From NCBI GenBank assembly GCA_044368305.1, contig JBIPLS010000001.1:1-59763 (forward strand): a stretch of 59,763 nucleotides of DNA, read 5' to 3'. Position numbers and translations under genes: made by a program. Each line of letters starts with the position of its first letter. Positions within the stretch are counted from its first letter, which is position 1. This DNA comes from Pirellulales bacterium. Lineage in GTDB: Bacteria; Planctomycetota; Planctomycetia; Pirellulales; UBA1268. The notes under the pieces were generated by a model, which worked only from the letters and a program-made list of their open reading frames with translations, did no database searches and was not told where the DNA came from. Positions 3 through 20,333 of the stretch are shown in pieces.

Positions 3-863
3 GTGTACGTGGACGGCGCGAACATGAACGCCCTGGTGGGCCTGGCGGCGCCCGGCCGGTTCGGCGGCGACGTCAGCCACCTGAACCTCCACAAGACGTT
101 CTGCATCCCGCACGGCGGGGGCGGGCCGGGCGTGGGCCCGGTATGCGTCGTCGAGGATCTCGTCCCCTTCCTGCCGGGCCACGTGACGGGCGGCCTGCCG
201 CCGGCCGCCGTGGGCGCGGTGTCGGCCGCGCCGCTCGGCAACGCCGCGGTGCTGCCGATCAGCTGGATGTATTGCCGGATGATGGGTGCCGAGGGGCTGC
301 GGCATGCCACCGAGGCCGCGATCCTGGCGGCCAACTACGTCAGCGTTCGACTCCGCGGCCACTTCCCCACGCTCTACTGCGGCCCGAACGGCCGCGTGGC
401 CCACGAGTGCATCCTCGACCTGCGGCCGCTCAAGGAGACGAGCGGGGTGACGGCCGAGGACGTGGCCAAGCGGCTCATCGACTACGGCTTCCACGCGCCG
501 ACCTTGAGCTTCCCCGTGCCGGGCACGCTCATGGTGGAGCCGACGGAGAGCGAGCCGCTCGCCGAGCTCGACCGGTTCGTCGCGGCGATGATCGCCATCC
601 GCGGCGAGATCGCCCGCATCGAGGCCGGCGAGTGGCCAGAGGACGACAACCCGCTGAAGAACGCCCCGCACACGGCGGCCACCGTCGCGGCGACGGCCTG
701 GGGGCACCCCTATTCCCGCGAGACAGCGGCCTTCCCGATAGCGGCGCTGCGGCGGACGAAGTATTGGCCGCCGGTGGGCCGCGTGGACAACGTCCACGGC
801 GATCGCAACCTGTTCTGCAGCTGCGTGCCCGTGTCGGCCTGGGCCGAGGCCGCGGCCCGCTGA
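3..863 (+). CDS. gcvP: Glycine dehydrogenase (decarboxylating) P-protein, C-terminal part; the 5' end lies outside the window
   Basis: The ORF is open at the window edge. It contains [24 protein letters not shown], the PLP-lysine region of GcvP/GcvPB. Composition is natural, unlike the Arg/Pro-rich overlapping frames. TGA stop at 861-863. Confidence 0.9.
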
Positions 864-875
864 GGGCCGCCGCAC

Positions 876-1868
876 TCACTGCACGACGCTCTTGCTCCCC
901 TCGGTCGAGCCGCCGATCGGAGCGCCGTCGGGCATCGGCCGGCCGGCCGACGGGATCCCGAGCCGGTGCAGCTCCTCGCGAATCCGGCGGTACTCGGGAA
1001 AACTGTCGGGGTAGCACCACAGCGTGACGGTCGTCTCCGGCTTCGCGCCGGAGACCGCGCGACGGAACCGCGACGTCGCGGCCAGCGCCTCGTCGGCCGT
1101 CTCGCCGAGCGCCGGCTGCTGCGGTCGCACGACCCATTCGCGGGAACGGATCAACACCTGGCCGCGGGCCTGATCGATCTTCGCCTCGATGACGTAGTCG
1201 AGAGCGAACCCCTGCTCGGGCCCCACGGTCTCGATGCGGTTGGCGAGCTGGGCGATCGAACCGCCCTGCCGCTGGGTGCGGTTCTTGGCGAGCTCGAACA
1301 GCTCCTCGAGCGGGATGTAGGCGATCCGCCCCGCCGCCAGCCGGAAGTGGATCTCCTCGCCGTTCACCGTGCGGCCGATGGGCGTGGGGTAGGCGAGCAC
1401 CTCCTTGGTCGTGGCGGCCGCGTGGGCCAGGCCCTCGGCCTGGAGCGCGTAGCCGCGGATCTCCTCCTCCAGCGTCCGACGCCGCACGGCGGACTCGGCC
1501 GCGGCCACCCGCGCGGCGTCGCTCGCCTGCTTCCAACGATCGAGACCGGCGTTCGCGGCGGAGACGGCCGTGGCCATTTGCAGCCGGGCGTCGGCGGCGA
1601 AGGCGGCGGCGGTGGCCACCGTCCGCTTCTGGGACTCGAGCTCGTCGATCTCGCTCTCGGTCGAGGCCAGCGTCTCCTCGAGGTCGGCGACCGCGGTCTC
1701 CAGGGCCGCGGCCTCGGGCGCGGCCTGCGTCGCCGAGAGCACGATCCGCTGCACGCGACCCCCGATCACCATCACGAGGATGATGAGGATCCCGACGATG
1801 TTCGTGACGACGTCGAGGAACGAGTCCTGTCCGGCGTCGCTGATTTCTAACGGCTTGCGGCGGGGCAT
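876..1868 (-). CDS. Single-pass membrane protein: ExbD/TolR-like N-terminal anchor, coiled coil, C-terminal alpha/beta module (third gene of the MotA/ExbB-like operon)
   Basis: The N-terminus DSFLDVVTNIVGILIILVMV resembles the ExbD/TolR anchor and has an Asp at the membrane border. About 110 residues are Ala/Glu/Leu-rich and helical. The C-terminal TVTLWCYPDSFPEYRRIREELHRLGI is ExbD-like. GAGGA lies 7 nt before the ATG at 1868, and the gap to the upstream gene is 21 nt. Confidence 0.6.
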   Translation of the reverse strand: MPRRKPLEISDAGQDSFLDVVTNIVGILIILVMVIGGRVQRIVLSATQAAPEAAALETAVADLEETLASTESEIDELESQKRTVATAAAFAADARLQMATAVSAANAGLDRWKQASDAARVAAAESAVRRRTLEEEIRGYALQAEGLAHAAATTKEVLAYPTPIGRTVNGEEIHFRLAAGRIAYIPLEELFELAKNRTQRQGGSIAQLANRIETVGPEQGFALDYVIEAKIDQARGQVLIRSREWVVRPQQPALGETADEALAATSRFRRAVSGAKPETTVTLWCYPDSFPEYRRIREELHRLGIPSAGRPMPDGAPIGGSTEGSKSVVQ

Positions 1869-1889
1869 GGGCGGATCCTCGGCATGCGA

Positions 1890-3914
1890 TCAACGCTTCG
1901 ACGGCAGCGATCCGGTGCGATCGACGGGGGGCAGCGGCCGCACGCCGTCTTGGCTCGCGGCGGGCCGCGTCTCCAGGCCGCTGTCGGCGAGCAACCGTTC
2001 CAGTTCCTCGCGCCGCGAGCGGCCGTCGGCGGTCGCCGAGAGGACGAGTTCCGGCTTCCAGTACATCCGGTCGCCGGCGATTCCCCAGCGGCCCACCTTG
2101 GCATGCACGGCGGCCACGAGCGGATCGATGGAGTCGGCCGTCGTCCCGCCGATGGGAATCCGGGTCTCCACGCGGCCGCCGCCGTCGTCGAGGATGCGGA
2201 ACTCGTGGGCCGCGCACTCCAGCCGGATCGGGCGGCGGAGCGGAATCGGCCGGTCGCGGGTCGCGAGACTCGCCCAGTTGCTGCCCCGCTTGCCGGCCAG
2301 CGACGCCGAGCCGGGGGCCTCGCTCGCGCCTTCGAGCATGCCGCCGGCGGCGCCGCCCGGCTGGGCGAGGCCCGGCATGGAGGGCCCGCCGAGGCTGCCG
2401 CCGGCGCCGGCCGGTTGGCCGCCGGCCGATGCCATCCCACCCGCGGCGCCGGAGCCTCCCGGAGTCGATCCCGCGCCGCCCGTCATCTGTCCGCCGCTGG
2501 TCTGTCCGCCGTTTGCCTGCCCACCGCTCGTCTGTCCGCCGCTCGTCGCGCTGCCGGCCGTCGGGCCGTCGCCGGCCGCGGTCGATCCGGCCGCCGCGTC
2601 GCGTTGCGTGGCGTAGAACTTCGAGGGACCCGCGTAGCGGTCGCCGAGGATGGCATCGCCCGGCCCCGATCCGCCGCCGGCGGATCGCCCCGCATCGGGG
2701 CCGCCCGGGCCGCTGCCGGCCTGAGGTCCGCCCACGCCGGCCGCATCCCCGCCCGCACCGAAACCGCGGCCGGCGGCCCCGCGGCCGAGGATCGCGTCTC
2801 CGCCCGAGCCGTCGCCGCCCGGCAGCCCGTCTCGGTCCTGGCTCGCAGCGGCGTTGCCGGCGACGAAACCGCGACCGCGCCGGCCCGCCGCCTGCTCTTC
2901 CGTCCAATCGAACCGCGACTGGTCGCCGAGCACACTCGGCCCACCCTCGGCCACCACGCCGCCCCGCGTGGTCGCGGCTCGAAAATGCTGCACCGGCGGC
3001 GCCGGCCGCGACTTTCGCACCTCGCCCAGCCAGGCCATGCGGCGCCGGGACTCCTCCACGGCCCGCATCTCGGCGTCGGCGAGCGCCGGATCGCGGGGCG
3101 GATAGTCGAGCGTCCAATCCTCGTCCACGAACTGGTAGCCGAACTCGCTGCCCCACGACTGGATCGCCTCGCGGGCCGCGTAGTAGGCCATCACGCCCGA
3201 CGGGCGGACGAGCAGGAGCGGATAGGGCTGGGCCGTCGGTTCGCCCGACTCCCGCGGCCCGGTGGCGATGTGCTCCCGGGCGGCCCGCAGCGCGCTGGCG
3301 AGCGGGTTGCCCGGGCCGGGCGGGCCCTCGAAATCAGCCGGCCCGAGCCGGATGCCCTCCGGCTGGAGGAACACGCCGTCGATGCAGCACTCGATGTACA
3401 GGGGGCGGCGGTGCGTGCCGCTGGCCCCCTCGTACGGCACGACCGCGTAGGCCGGCGGCTTCGCCGCCTGCTGCCGCTTGGCCTCCTCGACCGCCTCCCG
3501 CGCCCGTTCGAGTCGGCGCTCGAGGTCGGCCAGCGCCGCGGCGTCCTCCGGCCGCGGCCGGGCGTCCTCCGCGAGGGCGGCGGCCATCCGCTCCAGCCGC
3601 TCGAGCTCGTCGGCCAGCTTGCGGTTGTCGTCCTCGACGCCGGCGAGCTGCATCCGCGCCCGCGACAGGTCGGCCAGCGTCCGCTCGCGGATCTCCCTGA
3701 GCTGGCGCAGCCGCCAGGCGAGCTCGTCCTGCGCGAGCCGGAGGTCGTCTTCCTGCTGCCGCAGCGCCGCCTCGGCTGCGGCCCGCTCCTGCTCCCGCGC
3801 CGAGCGGCTGAAGAGCACGAGCAGGACGAGCAGCGCCCCCATCGTGCAGAGGAGCACGGCCAGGAACGGAAACAGCGAGATCGAGGCCCCGGATGCGGGG
3901 CGGGCACGGCTCAT
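1890..3914 (-). CDS. Single-pass membrane protein: TM anchor, coiled coil, two ExbD-like modules separated by a roughly 200-residue Gly/Ala/Ser-rich spacer (second gene of the MotA/ExbB-like operon)
   Basis: The ATG at 3914 overlaps the upstream TGA (ATGA). The MSRARPASGASISLFPFLAVLLCTMGALLVLLVLF anchor is followed by a heptad-like segment (residues about 40-150). Modules: PLYIECCIDGVFLQPEG...PLLLVRPSGVMAYYAAREAIQSWG and IRLECAAHEFRIL...ELVLSATADGRSRREELERLLADSGL. The tracked ORF runs on to 4370, but that extension is Arg/Pro-rich. Confidence 0.6.
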   Translation of the reverse strand: MSRARPASGASISLFPFLAVLLCTMGALLVLLVLFSRSAREQERAAAEAALRQQEDDLRLAQDELAWRLRQLREIRERTLADLSRARMQLAGVEDDNRKLADELERLERMAAALAEDARPRPEDAAALADLERRLERAREAVEEAKRQQAAKPPAYAVVPYEGASGTHRRPLYIECCIDGVFLQPEGIRLGPADFEGPPGPGNPLASALRAAREHIATGPRESGEPTAQPYPLLLVRPSGVMAYYAAREAIQSWGSEFGYQFVDEDWTLDYPPRDPALADAEMRAVEESRRRMAWLGEVRKSRPAPPVQHFRAATTRGGVVAEGGPSVLGDQSRFDWTEEQAAGRRGRGFVAGNAAASQDRDGLPGGDGSGGDAILGRGAAGRGFGAGGDAAGVGGPQAGSGPGGPDAGRSAGGGSGPGDAILGDRYAGPSKFYATQRDAAAGSTAAGDGPTAGSATSGGQTSGGQANGGQTSGGQMTGGAGSTPGGSGAAGGMASAGGQPAGAGGSLGGPSMPGLAQPGGAAGGMLEGASEAPGSASLAGKRGSNWASLATRDRPIPLRRPIRLECAAHEFRILDDGGGRVETRIPIGGTTADSIDPLVAAVHAKVGRWGIAGDRMYWKPELVLSATADGRSRREELERLLADSGLETRPAASQDGVRPLPPVDRTGSLPSKR

Positions 3915-5203
3915 GCGGCCCTTCCGACGCGGCGGGCCGACTGGAGATCGACGGTGCGGTGCTCGGAGGAGCCGCGGGACGCGAGCAGCTGGACCGCCGC
4001 GGCGAGCGTCGCGAGCGTCTCCTCGAAACGGCCGGCCGTGGAGAGCGTCGCCAGGTTGGCGTCGAGCGCCCGCTCCAGCGACGCGATGTCGCGGGTGGCT
4101 CCGACGACCTCGCCGAGCAGCGCCGTCTGGCCGGCGAGCGCGTCCTGGTGCCGCTCCAGGCCGCGGACCGCGCCGGCGAGCGACTCCGCCGCCTCGGTCC
4201 AGCGGGCCTCGCGGCGGGCGGCATGCTCGTCGTGCACGCGACCGAGCGACTCGGCCCAGCGCTCCAGGCTGTGGTCGAGCGACCGGGCGAGCGCCGTGTG
4301 GATCCGGTCCCCGGCCTCGTCGAGCAGTTGCCGGACGCCCGTGGCGGCCGTCCGCTCCAGCGATTGCCAAGCCTGTTCCTGGGCCTCGAGCAGCCGCGCG
4401 GAGCCCCGGCCGAGCGTCTCGCCGAGCCGGGCCACCGCCAGCGCCGTGCCCTCGTCACCGGAGAGCGACTGGAATCGCCCGGCCAGGGCCGCCCAGGCCC
4501 GCTCGTCCACCGCGGCCAGCAGCTGCGACTCGGACCGGTCGATCACGAACTGCAGGAACATCAGCACCATCGACAGTGCCAGGGCGGTGGCCGTGGTGTC
4601 GAACGCCGTGCCCAGCCCGGCCACGACGCCGGAGATGTTCTCCAGTTGCGTGGGGGAGAGGCTCGCGATCGCGACGGTGATGCCGATCACCGTCCCCAGG
4701 AAGCCCATGATGGGGATCGCCCAAATCACGAACCGCACCAGGCCGTAGCCCTGCGCCGCGCGGGCGGCGTCGAGGTCGGAGAGGTATTTGACGTGGTCCT
4801 CCAGGCCGTCGGCCGATCCGGTGCGGACGACGAGATCGAGCGCCTCCCGCAGGCGACGGACGAGGTGGTCGCCGCCCGCCTCGCCGTCGGGCAGGGCCGC
4901 CACGAGCGCGGCCGCCTCGGCCGGATCCTGGCCGCCGGTGGGAACCTCGGGCAGCGGGCATTCGCCATGGACGCGACGCATCTGCCTGGCCACGTCGGCG
5001 GCCTTGATGGCCAACGCCGCGAGCCCCACGCAAAACATCGCCGTCTCGACATACTCGACCCAGTGCCCGGCCAGGTAGCGAACGACGTTCGCGTCGGTGA
5101 TCACGCCGCCGTGGATCAGCGCGAAGAAGCAGAAGGCCAGCGCGCCGCCCCAGAGCAGCGGGGAGCGGAGCAGGATCGCGGACAGGGCGTTGACCTTCGA
5201 CAC
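3911..5203 (-). CDS. MotA/TolQ/ExbB-family proton-channel protein with a roughly 230-residue C-terminal helical tail
   Basis: Signature IWAIPIMGFLGTVIGITVAIASL ... GLGTAFDTTATALALSMVLMFLQFVI, with predicted TM helices before and within it. The chosen GTG start at 5203 is preceded by GGAGG with about 7-nt spacing. The tracked ORF extends to 5326. The tail is Ala/Leu/Glu/Arg-rich up to the stop. Confidence 0.8.
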   Translation of the reverse strand: MSKVNALSAILLRSPLLWGGALAFCFFALIHGGVITDANVVRYLAGHWVEYVETAMFCVGLAALAIKAADVARQMRRVHGECPLPEVPTGGQDPAEAAALVAALPDGEAGGDHLVRRLREALDLVVRTGSADGLEDHVKYLSDLDAARAAQGYGLVRFVIWAIPIMGFLGTVIGITVAIASLSPTQLENISGVVAGLGTAFDTTATALALSMVLMFLQFVIDRSESQLLAAVDERAWAALAGRFQSLSGDEGTALAVARLGETLGRGSARLLEAQEQAWQSLERTAATGVRQLLDEAGDRIHTALARSLDHSLERWAESLGRVHDEHAARREARWTEAAESLAGAVRGLERHQDALAGQTALLGEVVGATRDIASLERALDANLATLSTAGRFEETLATLAAAVQLLASRGSSEHRTVDLQSARRVGRAA

Positions 5204-5452
5204 CGTGCACCTCCGGAAACGCTGGCCGCCACCGCCGCGAACACCGCGGCCCTGGGGCGATCCAGCGTCGTTATCGGTACGCCTTGCGCAGCCGATTGAA
5301 TCCAAACATCCGGCACTGGGAAACATCGGTTCCAGGCCGCGGCTGCGCGAGGCCGGGCAGGCTGGGCAAGCCCGCGGCGGTCTTGCCGTAGGGCGGTGGT
5401 CGGCCTACCGTCCGACTCCATTCCCGCCGGTTCCGCTCCCGGAGTTCACCCC

Positions 5453-5818
5453 ATGCCCTGCTCGTGGTCCGCGATCCGCCGCGGATTCGGCCTCGCGGCG
5501 GTCGTCGGCCTCGCGGCCGCGTGGATCGCCGCCGTCGGCCGCGAGACCGCGGCCCAACGGCCGGCGGCGGCGGACCCGCATGCCGGCAACGGGCTCTGGA
5601 TCTCGGCCGGACCGCTCGACGATCAGCGCCGCCTGCTGATCGTGATCGACCCGCACCTCAAGAACGCGGCCGTCTACCACGTCGACGCCGCCGCGGGCAC
5701 ACTGGCCCTCAAAAGCACCCGCGACATCAGCTACGACCTCATGGTCGGCGACTTCAACGCCCAGGCCCCCAAGCCGGCCGACATCCGCAAGATGCTGGAA
5801 GTCGCCCCCGGCCGGTAA
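5453..5818 (+). CDS. Small secreted hypothetical protein
   Basis: An internal ATG with GGAG 9 nt upstream is followed by a signal-like MPCSWSAIRRGFGLAAVVGLAAAWIAAVG. Composition is natural. The gene is divergent from the MotA-like operon. Confidence 0.5.
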   Translation: MPCSWSAIRRGFGLAAVVGLAAAWIAAVGRETAAQRPAAADPHAGNGLWISAGPLDDQRRLLIVIDPHLKNAAVYHVDAAAGTLALKSTRDISYDLMVGDFNAQAPKPADIRKMLEVAPGR

Positions 5819-5982: not shown

Positions 5983-7050
5983 ATGATGGCCGGAAGATTC
6001 CTGTCGCTCGAAGAAGCCGCCCGCCAGCTCGGGGTCAGCGTCGACGAGGTGAATCGCCTCGTCGACAGGAAGAAGCTGTTCCCCATGCGCGATGGCGCCG
6101 CCGTCAAGTTCAAGGCCGACGACATCGAGCGTGTGGCCCGCGACATGGGCGACGAGTCGCAGGCGGACGACTTGGCCCTCGACCTCGACCTGCCGGCCGC
6201 CGCCGAGGAGCTGTCGATCGGCGACCCGCTCGACGGCACCGAGTCGATCTTCTCCGCGGACCAGTCGCGGGCGCCGGGCGCCTCGCAGACGATCGTCCGC
6301 GGCCCGGGCGGGCAGCCCGCGGCCTCCGGCCTGACCGGCGACGTGGCCGCCGGATCCCTCGCCGGGGCGCTCGACGACGACCTGGCACTGGAGTCGATCA
6401 TCGGCGCGTCGTCGCCCGGAATCGCCCGCGGCGGCTCGGTGACTGGCCTGGGGGCCGGCAGCGATCTGGCGATCGGCCTCGGAAACTCGGGCCCGGCCGC
6501 GGGTGGTCCGGGCTCAATCGCCGGGCTGTCGGCCGCGTCGGGAACCGGGGCCGCGTTGTCGGGCGCCCTCGACAGCGGGCTGTCGCTCGAGGATGCCGAC
6601 GTGCAGCTCTCGGGGATCGACGTCGGCGGGGCCTCGGCCGTCAACGCGTCGTCCGCATCGATCGTCGCCCAGGGATCCTTCCTCGGGGGCGACGAGTTCC
6701 AGCTGGGGAGCGACACGACGGACGACGAGAGCGCCTCGGTGGTCATCGCCACCGAGGAGACCGGTGACTCCAGCTTCTTCGGCGCCGCCATCGAGGGCGA
6801 GGGGTCGATCCTCTCCGACGAATCAGTGAGCGACAGCGCCTCCGTGCTCCTCGGGGGGGAGGTCGGCGAATACGCCCTGGAGACGCCCTTCAGCCCGCTG
6901 CAGATCGCGGGCCTCGTGTGCTGCTCCCTGATGCTGTTGTTCGGCGGCTTCGTGCTCTACGACCTGGTGCGGACGATCGGCTCGCCCGAAGGCCCTTCGT
7001 TGTCCAACCCGCTGCTCAACGCGATGGCCGAGACCTTCGGCTGGCGGTAG
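5983..7050 (+). CDS. Excisionase/MerR-type helix-turn-helix protein with an acidic low-complexity middle and a C-terminal transmembrane helix
   Basis: The N-terminus FLSLEEAARQLGVSVDEVNRLVDRKKLFPMRDGAAVKFKADDIE is HTH_17-like. It is followed by a long Asp/Ser/Gly/Ala-rich region. The C-terminus LQIAGLVCCSLMLLFGGFVLYDLV is a TM helix. Confidence 0.7.
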   Translation: MMAGRFLSLEEAARQLGVSVDEVNRLVDRKKLFPMRDGAAVKFKADDIERVARDMGDESQADDLALDLDLPAAAEELSIGDPLDGTESIFSADQSRAPGASQTIVRGPGGQPAASGLTGDVAAGSLAGALDDDLALESIIGASSPGIARGGSVTGLGAGSDLAIGLGNSGPAAGGPGSIAGLSAASGTGAALSGALDSGLSLEDADVQLSGIDVGGASAVNASSASIVAQGSFLGGDEFQLGSDTTDDESASVVIATEETGDSSFFGAAIEGEGSILSDESVSDSASVLLGGEVGEYALETPFSPLQIAGLVCCSLMLLFGGFVLYDLVRTIGSPEGPSLSNPLLNAMAETFGWR

Positions 7051-7148: not shown

Positions 7149-9173
7149 ATGGCCCGCCGCCGGCTCGCATCTCCCGAACAGCCCGCCGCCGTCCGGGCCC
7201 TGCTCGGCGGCTACGAGTTTTGCGCGTCGCTGCAGTTCGCGGTGGTTCTCATCGCCCTGCTGGCGGTGGTGCTCGGCCTGGGCACGTTCGTGGAGAGCGG
7301 CTTCGGCACGGAGGCGGTGAAGTTCGGCGTCTGGAACACCTGGTGGTTCACCCTGCTCAACGCCCTGCTCGCCGTCAGCATCTTCTGCGCCGCGGCCATT
7401 CGCTTCCCCTGGAAGCGGCACCAGACCGGGTTCGTGATCACGCACGTGGGGCTGCTGGTCCTGCTCGCCGGCTGCCTGATGTCGCAACGCGGCGGCATCG
7501 ACGCCCAGATCCCGCTGCTGGAAGGGGAGCGGGGCAGCCGGGCCTACGAGGACTCCCACCACTTCCGCATCGAATTGGAGCCGCGGGCGGGAGGCGGCCG
7601 GGAGGTGATCGGCCCGATCCCGTTCCGCTCCGGCCCCTTCAACTGGTCGGAATACGGCACGACGCGGAGCTGGTTTCCCTGGGGTCTCGCCCCGCGGGAC
7701 ACCGGCCCGATCCACGACGCCGACGGCGTGCGGCTGGAGGTGCTCGACTTCCTCGCCGACTCGACGGCCGCCCTGGCGCCGGGCGTGAGGCTGCGACTGG
7801 GCAGCGACGCGTTCGCCGCCGCGCCATCCGGGAGCATGTGGATCCCCGTCGATCTCGCCTGGCAGCCCGACCCGCTGCGGGCCGCCGAGGTCCGGCACCG
7901 CCAGCAGGCGGGCGGAGGGACGGTGGTGTTCTGGAAGACCGCTTCCACGGCGGAGGCCGAGGCGTTCCTGGCCGGCGTTCCCGATCCGGCGCTGGGCTAC
8001 GGCGAAAAGGGGCAGTTGGTGCTCGTGTGCGACGGGAAGCCGCACCGCATGCTCGTGGACGACGTGCTCGGCAAGGAGGCCTTCGCACCCGCCGGCGAGG
8101 CCGGCGACGCACCGCTGTTCGTCGAGGTGCACGACTACGAGCCGCGGCTCTCCGGGGCGCGGATCCGCGTCCGTCGCGGCCGGGAGGGACAGGCCGAGGA
8201 GATGGTCGTGCTCGCCGACCTGCCCGAGGTCACGATCCACGCGCCGCGGGTCGGCGTCTATGGCACGCTGTGGGTCGAGCGCCAGGTCGCCGACGCAGCG
8301 GAGCGGATGCAGGGCAAGGGCCGCAGCCGAATCGACGTGATCCAGGCCAAGGGCCTGCCGGCGGCGATCGCGGCCGAGCGGACGCCGGCCGGTTTCTCGC
8401 TGCTCTACAGGCGCTGGCAGGCGCCGACGGCCGTAGCGGCCGCGCTGCCGCTCGACGGGCGACCGGTGCCGGCCTTCGAGATGCCGCGGGCGAAACTGGA
8501 GTTGCGCGTGGATCGTTTCCTGCCGGCCGACGCCCTGGAAATCGCCACGCTGCCGGTGCCCTTCGACAAGGCCAAGGCCCCGTCCGCCAAGCGCCGAGCC
8601 GCGAAAGTGCGGCTCACCGTGGACGGCCGGGCGGAGGAGTTCTGGCTCGCCGGCATGCCGATCCAGCCGATCGAGGAGCCGCCCGGCCCTGCGGAGCGGC
8701 GGGTGGTGGAGTCGCCGACCCGCTCGGCGGCGATCACGTTCCAGCCCGACGCGGTGGACGTGGGCTTCGACGTGCGGCTCGACAACTTCGAGCGCCGGCT
8801 CGATCCGGGCACCAGCCAGGCGTCGCACTTCTCGAGCGTCGTCGAGTTCTTCTCCAAGGAGGGCCGCCCCCTGGTCGACGATCCGGTGACGATCACGATG
8901 AACGCCCCGGTGGACTTCTCCGATCCGCGGACGGGCCGCTCCTATCGGCTCTTCCAGGAGAGCTTCATGGGGCCTTGGCTCCCGGGCGACGACCTCTACG
9001 AGCGGTTCACGCAGGGGACGTCCGCGAAGCCGGCGCGGCTGGAGGCGTCGGTGCTGACCGTCAATTACGACCCCGGCCGCGGCGTCAAATACGCCGGCAG
9101 CGGCCTGATCGTCATCGGCATCTTCACGATGTTCTACATGAAGGCCTATTTCTTCGGTCCGCGACGGCACTGA
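7149..9173 (+). CDS. ccsB: Cytochrome c biogenesis protein ResB/Ccs1 (system II)
   Basis: ResB-like N-terminus: CASLQFAVVLIALLAVVLGLGTFVES ... WWFTLLNALLAVSIFCAAAIRFPWKRHQTGFVITHVGLLVLLAG. There is a large periplasmic domain and a C-terminal TM helix, and the gene lies directly upstream of ccsA. Confidence 0.85.
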   Translation: MARRRLASPEQPAAVRALLGGYEFCASLQFAVVLIALLAVVLGLGTFVESGFGTEAVKFGVWNTWWFTLLNALLAVSIFCAAAIRFPWKRHQTGFVITHVGLLVLLAGCLMSQRGGIDAQIPLLEGERGSRAYEDSHHFRIELEPRAGGGREVIGPIPFRSGPFNWSEYGTTRSWFPWGLAPRDTGPIHDADGVRLEVLDFLADSTAALAPGVRLRLGSDAFAAAPSGSMWIPVDLAWQPDPLRAAEVRHRQQAGGGTVVFWKTASTAEAEAFLAGVPDPALGYGEKGQLVLVCDGKPHRMLVDDVLGKEAFAPAGEAGDAPLFVEVHDYEPRLSGARIRVRRGREGQAEEMVVLADLPEVTIHAPRVGVYGTLWVERQVADAAERMQGKGRSRIDVIQAKGLPAAIAAERTPAGFSLLYRRWQAPTAVAAALPLDGRPVPAFEMPRAKLELRVDRFLPADALEIATLPVPFDKAKAPSAKRRAAKVRLTVDGRAEEFWLAGMPIQPIEEPPGPAERRVVESPTRSAAITFQPDAVDVGFDVRLDNFERRLDPGTSQASHFSSVVEFFSKEGRPLVDDPVTITMNAPVDFSDPRTGRSYRLFQESFMGPWLPGDDLYERFTQGTSAKPARLEASVLTVNYDPGRGVKYAGSGLIVIGIFTMFYMKAYFFGPRRH

Positions 9174-20259: not shown

Positions 20260-20333
20260 GCCAGCGTAGCTTCAATTGGCAGAGCACCGCATTCGTAATG
20301 CGGGGGTTGCGGGTTCGACTCCCGCCGCTGGCT
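20260..20333 (+). tRNA. tRNA-Thr (anticodon CGU)
   Basis: Hand-folded cloverleaf. Acceptor stem GCCAGCG/CGCTGGC with discriminator T. D arm GCTT-CAATTGGCA-GAGC. Anticodon stem CCGCA/TGCGG with loop TTCGTAA. T arm GCGGG-TTCGACT-CCCGC. 74 nt; CCA is not encoded. Confidence 0.93.

Follow-up and report, generated by a model that had tools for sequence, protein, structure and literature searches.

Ion-driven motors of the 5:2 type power flagella and gliding, outer-membrane transport, the constriction of the envelope linked to division, and phage defence, and each newly recognized variant has revealed a new route by which energy is exported from the inner membrane. In the GldLM/PorLM systems, the MotA-like ring has a cytoplasmic tail and drives a dimeric single-pass partner, the long shaft of which spans the periplasm and carries no peptidoglycan-binding domain. 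TolQ-like genes have also been reported together with pairs of heterologous, non-ExbD proteins that have an Asp-bearing transpore helix, with no tolR or exbD, and the taxa reported for these proposed TPH-vWA motors are mainly Proteobacteria and Verrucomicrobia (PMC12204202).

Here, we present a locus of three adjacent genes, g1, g2 and g3, in a stretch of 59,763 nt (the window) from contig JBIPLS010000001.1 of assembly GCA_044368305.1, a Pirellulales bacterium (UBA1268), with all coordinates given as positions in this stretch. We consider it probable that this operon encodes a 5:2 membrane motor like MotAB, ExbBD and TolQR, driven by the proton motive force, specific to Planctomycetota and built around a heteromeric axle. 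An original prediction for this DNA had suggested a candidate uncharacterized ion-driven machine with lengthened periplasmic arms, and a channel gene with two partners bearing a TolR-type helix, held together in conserved synteny, is what our analysis recovers. The genes and their parts are as follows.

3911..5203, minus strand: g1, 430 residues, GTG start; MotA/ExbB-family channel subunit, putative pentameric A subunit
4523..4852, minus strand: g1 residues 118-227, MotA_ExbB core with two channel helices (AIPIMGFLGTVIGI, TAFDTTATALAL)
3914..4531, minus strand: g1 residues 225-430, proline-free C-terminal tail rich in Ala, Leu, Glu and Arg, presumably cytoplasmic
1890..3914, minus strand: g2, single-pass protein of 674 residues, g3 paralogue; putative second axle subunit and tethered force transducer
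3807..3878, minus strand: g2 residues 13-36, membrane helix SLFPFLAVLLCTMGALLVLLVLFS, in which Ala19 takes the place of the TolR/ExbD Asp
3462..3806, minus strand: g2 residues 37-151, long helices, predicted periplasmic
3015..3437, minus strand: g2 residues 160-300, globular module 1
2310..2879, minus strand: g2 residues 346-535, disordered tether of about 190 residues, rich in Gly, Ala and Ser
1950..2282, minus strand: g2 residues 545-655, globular module 2
876..1868, minus strand: g3, single-pass protein of 330 residues; putative axle subunit bearing the Asp
1755..1826, minus strand: g3 residues 15-38, membrane helix DSFLDVVTNIVGILIILVMV (AlphaFold2 helix 15-38), with the Asp19 codon at 1812-1814
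1425..1715, minus strand: g3 residues 52-148, a single helix of 97 residues in the AlphaFold2 model, putative coiled-coil stalk of about 14 nm
879..1376, minus strand: g3 residues 165-330, conserved alpha/beta domain, mostly above 90 in AlphaFold2 model confidence (pLDDT, predicted local distance difference test)

A channel gene and two paralogous partners

The window has a G+C content of about 73%, and many spurious long open reading frames overlap this region as a result, among which the trio stands out on the minus strand. The gene map of the original prediction is borne out by the sequence: g1 ends and g2 begins within a shared ATGA, and 21 nt, with a GAGGA ahead of the g3 ATG, separate the g2 stop from the g3 start. 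For g1, we prefer the GTG at 5203 to an ATG further upstream (5326), since the alignments with homologues from 80 genomes begin at the first residue of the GTG reading. The operon is isolated, as had also been proposed, with gcvP on the opposite strand converging on g3 (its end lies 12 nt from the g3 stop) and the genes beyond g1, on its upstream side, transcribed divergently. We note that the exact g3 protein is present in a public protein collection from which an exact g2 was not returned (best match 81% identical), which suggests that, in the source record, g2 was either given another start or missed in gene calling.

Residues 118-227 of g1 match the Pfam family PF01618 (MotA_ExbB) with an E-value of 2.2e-10 and 40.8 bits against a cutoff of 22.9 bits, in agreement with the MotA/TolQ/ExbB signature noted previously. 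The NCBIfam equivalog models for ExbB, TolQ, MotA and PomA, in contrast, score g1 at 10-20 bits against cutoffs of 135-402 (14.6-19.7 bits against 135-402 for ExbB and TolQ, and 10-14 bits against 340-380 for MotA and PomA). As the Pfam match is significant and the equivalog scores lie far below their cutoffs, g1 is a member of the family rather than an orthologue of any named system.

The pore residues of the family are retained. In an hhalign comparison, residues 128-200 of Escherichia coli ExbB (transmembrane helices TM2-TM3) are matched by a profile built from ten g1 orthologues with a probability of 89% and an E-value of 2e-6, placing P164, T171 and T204 of g1 on P141, T148 and T181 of ExbB. 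P164, G167, G170, T171, T203 and T204 are invariant in our g1 alignment (A7), which includes orthologues down to 30-40% identity, and the conserved pore-lining Thr pair and helix-kink Pro of the PF01618 family are thereby both present in g1.

There are four hydrophobic segments in g1 (residues 14-35, 50-72, 155-182 and 200-222), and these, taken together with the topology of ExbB and MotA, would place the tail that follows in the cytoplasm. This tail comprises 206 residues (225-430), and so is shorter than the approximately 230 residues first estimated, while the Ala/Leu/Glu/Arg-rich character described for it is confirmed (56% of residues, with zero proline). Its composition suggests that it is helical. 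The middle of the tail varies in length, with deletions in two loci (L065 and L085), and the final approximately 70 residues are conserved in the same alignment, ending in G[KRQ]AA.

Coiled-coil noise apart, g2 and g3 match no family in Pfam, NCBIfam or PADLOC, and we describe their architecture from AlphaFold2 monomer models based on alignments of 65 (g3, mean pLDDT 85.5) and 58 (g2) sequences. Each protein has a single membrane helix, and the Asp reported at the membrane border of g3 is indeed found there (FLDVV, Asp19), whereas g2 has none (FLAVL). The g3 membrane region reads DSFLDVVTNIVGILIILV, with Asp19 as the third residue of the helix, and this residue is Asp in 63 of 65 homologues reaching down to approximately 30% identity, with Asn found in the remaining two. 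Of 58 g2 homologues, 48 have Ala where g3 has this Asp and nine have an Asp there as well, the Asp-bearing variants reading NLLPLLDVLLCTMG or SLFPFLDALIC; in one distant locus (L084), both partners carry the Asp. The PLLDVLL of Asp-bearing g2 variants also forms the center of the TolR helix of E. coli. The B subunit of a 5:2 motor has a lone N-terminal membrane helix, with a conserved Asp toward the cytoplasm, and a gene beside that of the A subunit. The trio shows this arrangement, and no other candidate for a B subunit was found, whether within the operon or at the related loci.

Behind the membrane helix, both models show the long helices that had been read as coiled coil ahead of the globular modules, at residues 52-148 in g3 (pLDDT 94-97 across residues 61-150) and at residues 15-116 and 122-151 in g2 (pLDDT mostly about 88-96, falling to 76-83 around the break at 117-121). 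In g2, residues 37-151 are 71% Ala, Leu, Glu and Arg, with a hydrophobic period of 3.5 residues. The models contain one globular module in g3, which ends in an invariant GAPIGGS-x-x-GSKSVV, and two in g2. Module 1 of g2 has the strand order β-β-β-α-β-α-β at residues 171-262, followed by a helix at 276-299, with highly conserved alignment columns, and module 2 has the same order at 557-651 (pLDDT >87 over 561-650). Between them lies the Gly-rich disordered linker of about 190 residues (pLDDT <50 over 346-535; 33% Gly over residues 340-540), a feature missing from the original prediction, which differs among homologues in both length and sequence.

Profile comparisons indicate that g2 and g3 are paralogous. 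The two align in register over the N-terminal part, the stalk and the first hairpin of the globular part (hhalign probability 94%, E-value 1e-7), and the first hairpins of g2 modules 1 and 2 are themselves related (probability 93%, E-value 4e-7, over 19 columns). The simplest history is the duplication of a protein with a TolR-type helix, one copy of which lost its Asp in most lineages.

The globular modules had been described as ExbD-like, and for g2 the count of two such modules stands while their ExbD-like nature does not. The ExbD family (PF02472) has no Pfam match in g2 or g3 at E ≤ 1, nor in six Asp-bearing g2 homologues at E ≤ 10, and 65 g3 homologues show no Pfam match at E ≤ 0.01. Profile searches of the PDB (alignments A1, A2 and A3) returned coiled-coil noise only, with no ExbD, TolR or MotB, and comparison of each module with E. 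coli ExbD and TolR by hhalign gave probabilities of at most 0.5%. Likewise, Foldseek searches of the PDB with either model gave no match at E ≤ 1e-3 and no ExbD or TolR among the top 50, the weak top matches being RNase-H-like, SnoaL and AMPK-beta structures for g3 and uS11 and sugar-kinase structures for g2, all with E-values of at least 0.004. We therefore reject an ExbD identity for these modules, and as their strand order, β-β-(β)-α-β-α-β, fits ExbD and equally the uS11 and RNase-H-like folds, we treat them as domains without a family or fold assignment. A search of the window and 81 loci found no canonical ExbD/TolR genes, and Pfam detects no OmpA-like domain in g2 or g3.

The trio is widely conserved. 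Homologues of g3 with 62-85% identity over their full length occur in 80 genomes, which are species-level GTDB genomes, all labeled Planctomycetota, and the order g1-g2-g3 is kept in every one of these 80 loci with enough upstream DNA. A g3 profile search of 1.84 billion representatives recovers, at E ≤ 1e-3, 1,782 clusters formed at 50% identity, of which 708 reach E ≤ 1e-30; the best 150 of the 1,782 are nearly all full-length, at about 320-390 residues. Such identity across 80 genomes, together with the 708 clusters, argues that the trio is not a chance arrangement. All named relatives of the g3 family are Planctomycetota. Eleven further contexts, reached through distant g3 or g2 representatives and with g1 at 30-40% identity, each combine a PF01618 gene with a protein of 570-910 residues and one of 320-372 residues amid differing flanks, such that the synteny check proposed for this phylum has a positive outcome in both the close loci and the distant contexts. 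Among the latter, g3 is split by a frameshift in L085, and in L090 g1 is inverted, though the trio genes are still near one another, with g2 and g3 lying on the opposite strand behind queC and a PTPS gene. Our literature searches found no described planctomycete module of this kind.

Proposed machine and competing explanations

In the machine that we propose, g1 would form a pentameric channel ring, each subunit of which carries a long cytoplasmic tail, and the N-terminal helices of g3 and g2 would lie side by side inside this ring as a heterodimeric axle (5:1:1). The Asp of g3 would carry protons, with g2 lacking an Asp in most lineages, and the axle would be turned or levered against the ring by the flow of protons, doing work on an envelope partner. 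The matched helices of the g2/g3 pair, approximately 100-115 residues long, would pair in the periplasm as a coiled-coil stalk about 15 nm long, keeping the heads off the membrane, so that stalk and heads might reach about 15-20 nm into the periplasm. The second globular domain of g2 would sit on its disordered tether of about 190 residues, as in TonB and TolA, and could be carried further still. The g1 tails may engage a cytoplasmic partner or anchor. The link offered earlier between such long arms and an enlarged planctomycete periplasm is speculation, and for the cellular role we can offer only a guess, held with low confidence, of Tol-like envelope maintenance or division.

The near invariance of the pore Thr of g1 and the Asp of g3 over deep divergence argues for a working proton path, and the translational coupling of g2 to g1 through the ATGA overlap likewise counts in favor of a motor. 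The TolQ-like genes reported with heterologous protein pairs (PMC12204202) provide a precedent. We favor a g2-g3 heterodimer because the paralogous stalks are matched in register. Several observations nevertheless weigh against this proposal. No ExbD, OmpA or other recognizable anchor is found in the predicted periplasmic domains of g2 and g3. The membrane helices alone align only weakly to E. coli ExbD and TolR (E-values of 0.004-0.02, hhalign probabilities of 3-9%), as is to be expected for segments of about 20 residues. Finally, literature searches found no experimental data on any member of the family.

An arrangement that we regard as unlikely, while deserving consideration, retains the same motor but makes a g3 homodimer the Asp-bearing axle (5:2), with g2 as a peripheral TonB/TolA-like transducer outside the ring, the tether of which reaches the outer envelope. 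ExbB5-ExbD2-TonB is an established precedent for this arrangement, and the lack of the Asp in 48 of 58 g2 homologues would be consistent with it, as would the TonB/TolA-like layout of g2, with a helix, a long linker and a C-terminal domain. The in-register paralogy of the g2 and g3 helix and stalk, however, favors a heterodimeric coiled coil, and in nine of the 58 g2 homologues an Asp is retained within a motif like that of TolR. For TolA and TonB, an SHLS/His motif mediates binding to the ring (PMC12204202), whereas inspection of the g2 and g3 membrane helices finds this motif in neither, nor any His.

A more ambitious version of our proposal, which we consider quite unlikely, is an envelope-spanning rotary machine, in which the ring would turn a heterodimeric coiled-coil driveshaft, the heads would act on the wall or outer membrane, and the ring tails would link to two products of the neighboring genes, an HTH_17 protein and a small periplasmic partner. 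Were this version true, it could provide the missing force generator for budding or division independent of FtsZ, for the handling of chromosome or envelope at the neck of the bud, or for the uptake of macromolecules that has been described in planctomycetes.

It is very unlikely, in our view, that there is no motor at all, with g2 and g3 as structural coiled-coil proteins of the envelope or division apparatus and g1 as a degenerate channel serving as their scaffold. Sequence-profile matches are mostly to coiled coils, and two g3 homologues are named "cell division protein FtsB" by the Joint Genome Institute (JGI), a label that coiled-coil composition explains, as we found no FtsB family match. 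The near-invariant pore Thr and Asp, moreover, are at odds with a degenerate channel.

We consider it highly improbable that the trio is a diverged orthologue of Tol-Pal, ExbBD-TonB, AglRQS or a flagellar stator with its partners encoded elsewhere. This explanation could draw on the weak NCBIfam matches of g1 to ExbB, TolQ, MotA and PomA, and on an OmpA-family lipoprotein encoded three genes from the g1 orthologue in L090. Those NCBIfam scores, however, are all far below the cutoffs given above, neither g2, g3 nor 71 homologues show an ExbD/MotB match, and no gene for TolA, TolB, Pal, TonB or a TonB-dependent receptor occurs in the flanks of the trio in the window or in any distant locus, while the coiled-coil stalks and the two-module g2 are without counterpart in the named systems. 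Of the findings that the original prediction had itself set against its proposal, the lack of an ExbD match is what we observe; on the others, the MotA_ExbB match is significant, the trio is syntenic, and no characterized orthologue emerged.

Extremely improbable, finally, is a Zorya-like anti-phage or envelope-damage sensor, a function raised in the original prediction, in which a disturbance of the envelope would be relayed by ring and tail to an effector in the cytoplasm: the long g1 tail and weak PADLOC matches to ZorA (E-values of 2e-5 to 2e-2) point that way, but these matches are confined to about 60-70 residues in the membrane core, PADLOC finds no ZorB, ZorC, ZorD or ZorE in g2 or g3, which also lack an OmpA-like domain, no ZorC/D/E-like or nuclease genes lie in the flanks in the window or in the distant loci, no plasmid or phage copies were found, and the locus holds a fixed core-genome position beside gcvP and ResB at 62-85% identity across 80 species-level genomes, a housekeeping-like behavior that disfavors a defence role. 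We thus reject an assignment to Zorya or another defence system.

Returning to the heteromeric 5:2 motor, the conserved Asp and Thr offer clean point-mutant tests, and the compact trio would be tractable for cryo-electron microscopy and for genetics in cultivable planctomycetes. The trio is broadly conserved in a phylum in which division, envelope organization and uptake are largely unexplained.

Neighboring genes and further loci

The genes beside the trio are gcvP, a secreted protein of 140 residues, an HTH_17 membrane protein and ResB, and no TonB, Pal, OmpA or flagellar genes adjoin it in the window, in line with the earlier observation that these, and ZorC/D-like genes, are missing here.

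3-863, plus strand: glycine dehydrogenase GcvP, C-terminal part; flanking housekeeping gene
5396..5818, plus strand: small secreted or membrane-anchored protein, divergent from g1, start probably at a Met near 5450; possible accessory
5983..7050, plus strand: HTH_17 protein, 355 residues (Pfam HTH_17, E-value 9e-8); possible accessory
7149-9173, plus strand: ResB-like cytochrome c biogenesis protein; flanking housekeeping gene

The small protein has about 120 residues, an N-terminal signal or anchor, no Pfam match, and a conserved C-terminal domain with the motif ...V.D....v.svYh.e...G...L.s.R....D..., and its gene is always directly upstream of the HTH_17 gene. The HTH_17 protein consists of an N-terminal HTH_17 domain, a long acidic and Gly/Ser-rich disordered region and a C-terminal hydrophobic segment (residues 308-326), which suggests a tail-anchored DNA-binding protein. 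Both adjoin the trio in all close loci and in the distant L086, L088, L089 and L090, and were looked for and not found near it in L081, L084, L085 and L091-93, which limits the accessory link to a clade. They may be accessory partners in that clade or may merely reflect deep synteny. Adjacency to ResB (and CcsA) is likewise retained in some distant relatives (L086 and L088).

In L090, the HTH_17 gene lies downstream of the g1 orthologue and is co-directional with it, as is the gene for the small protein. Directly after the HTH_17 gene, at L090:2139-2936 (minus strand), is the OmpA-family lipoprotein mentioned above, which has a lipobox (...SSTGC) and an N-terminal coiled coil and is also co-directional with g1; it is a possible wall-binding partner, though one with a single occurrence. 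Genes for queC and PTPS (queD-like) are found repeatedly between the divergent HTH_17 pair and the trio (L086, L088, L089 and L090, and also L084), and this insertion is probably synteny without functional meaning.

Searches for g3 relatives on plasmids or phages found none, and an origin from a mobile element is rejected on these grounds. In two metagenome-assembled genomes (MAGs), two differing copies of the trio occur together (L018 and L049 in JBIIOM01, and L035 and L053 in VGYR01), which would be either paralogous systems or mixed-strain bins. We note also that several GTDB records bearing the locus (L002, L005, L019, L025 and others, from binchicken and other MAG sets) are titled "Candidatus Kuenenia," titles that look mislabeled given 65-85% identity to Pirellulales MAGs. 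The sole Rfam/ARAGORN match in the entire window is a tRNA-Thr (CGT) at 20260-20333 on the plus strand.

Comparison with described motors

Among the described motors, MotAB/PomAB differ from the trio in that g1 falls below the MotA and PomA equivalog cutoffs and g2 and g3 lack an OmpA-like domain. In ZorA-ZorB, as in the trio, the MotA-like subunit is extended at its C-terminus by a long helical tail (predicted as such in g1), but the tail of g1 is about 200 residues long, compared with several hundred in ZorA, and the trio has neither a peptidoglycan-binding partner like ZorB nor ZorC/D/E, and behaves as a housekeeping locus. The AglR-AglQ-AglS system of Myxococcus resembles the trio in combining one TolQ-like subunit with two differing TolR-like subunits; AglQ and AglS, however, are short, ordinary TolR-like proteins, and AglRQS has no coiled-coil stalk, extra modules or long ring tail, a distinction drawn from the description of that system and from the absent ExbD matches here.

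With ExbB-ExbD(-TonB) and TolQ-TolR(-TolA), the trio shares the Pfam family of g1, including the P-x-x-G-x-x-G-T and T-T-A pore motifs, and partners with one N-terminal helix and an Asp near its cytoplasmic end, while the long linker and distal domain of g2 recall TonB and TolA. Unlike those systems, the trio has no ExbD periplasmic domain, no separate TonB/TolA and no Pal/TolB; its partners differ from each other, one being usually without Asp, and carry a coiled coil of 100-115 residues after the membrane helix; and g1 has four hydrophobic segments and a tail of 206 residues.

For the operation of the stalk, GldLM/PorLM provide the closest analogue, a likeness that is architectural only: no part of the trio matches the GldL or GldM families in Pfam or NCBIfam at E ≤ 1, the key acidic residue of GldLM is on the ring and its shaft is homodimeric and Ig-like, whereas the Asp of the trio is on an axle subunit, and the type IX secretion system (T9SS) is not known in planctomycetes. 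The TPH-vWA motors share with the trio a TolQ-like gene linked to a heterologous pair of single-pass proteins, with an Asp-bearing transpore helix and no tolR or exbD (PMC12204202). The two differ in that the predicted periplasmic parts of the trio are a coiled coil and unassigned alpha/beta domains rather than vWA domains, and in that one trio partner is usually without Asp.

What sets the trio apart is a combination of features not found together elsewhere, namely an obligate pair of differing putative axle subunits, one usually without Asp, a predicted rigid stalk of about 15 nm, unassigned heads, and a TonB-like tether within an axle subunit. By analogy, GldLM/PorLM and the TPH-vWA motors may be its nearest functional counterparts.

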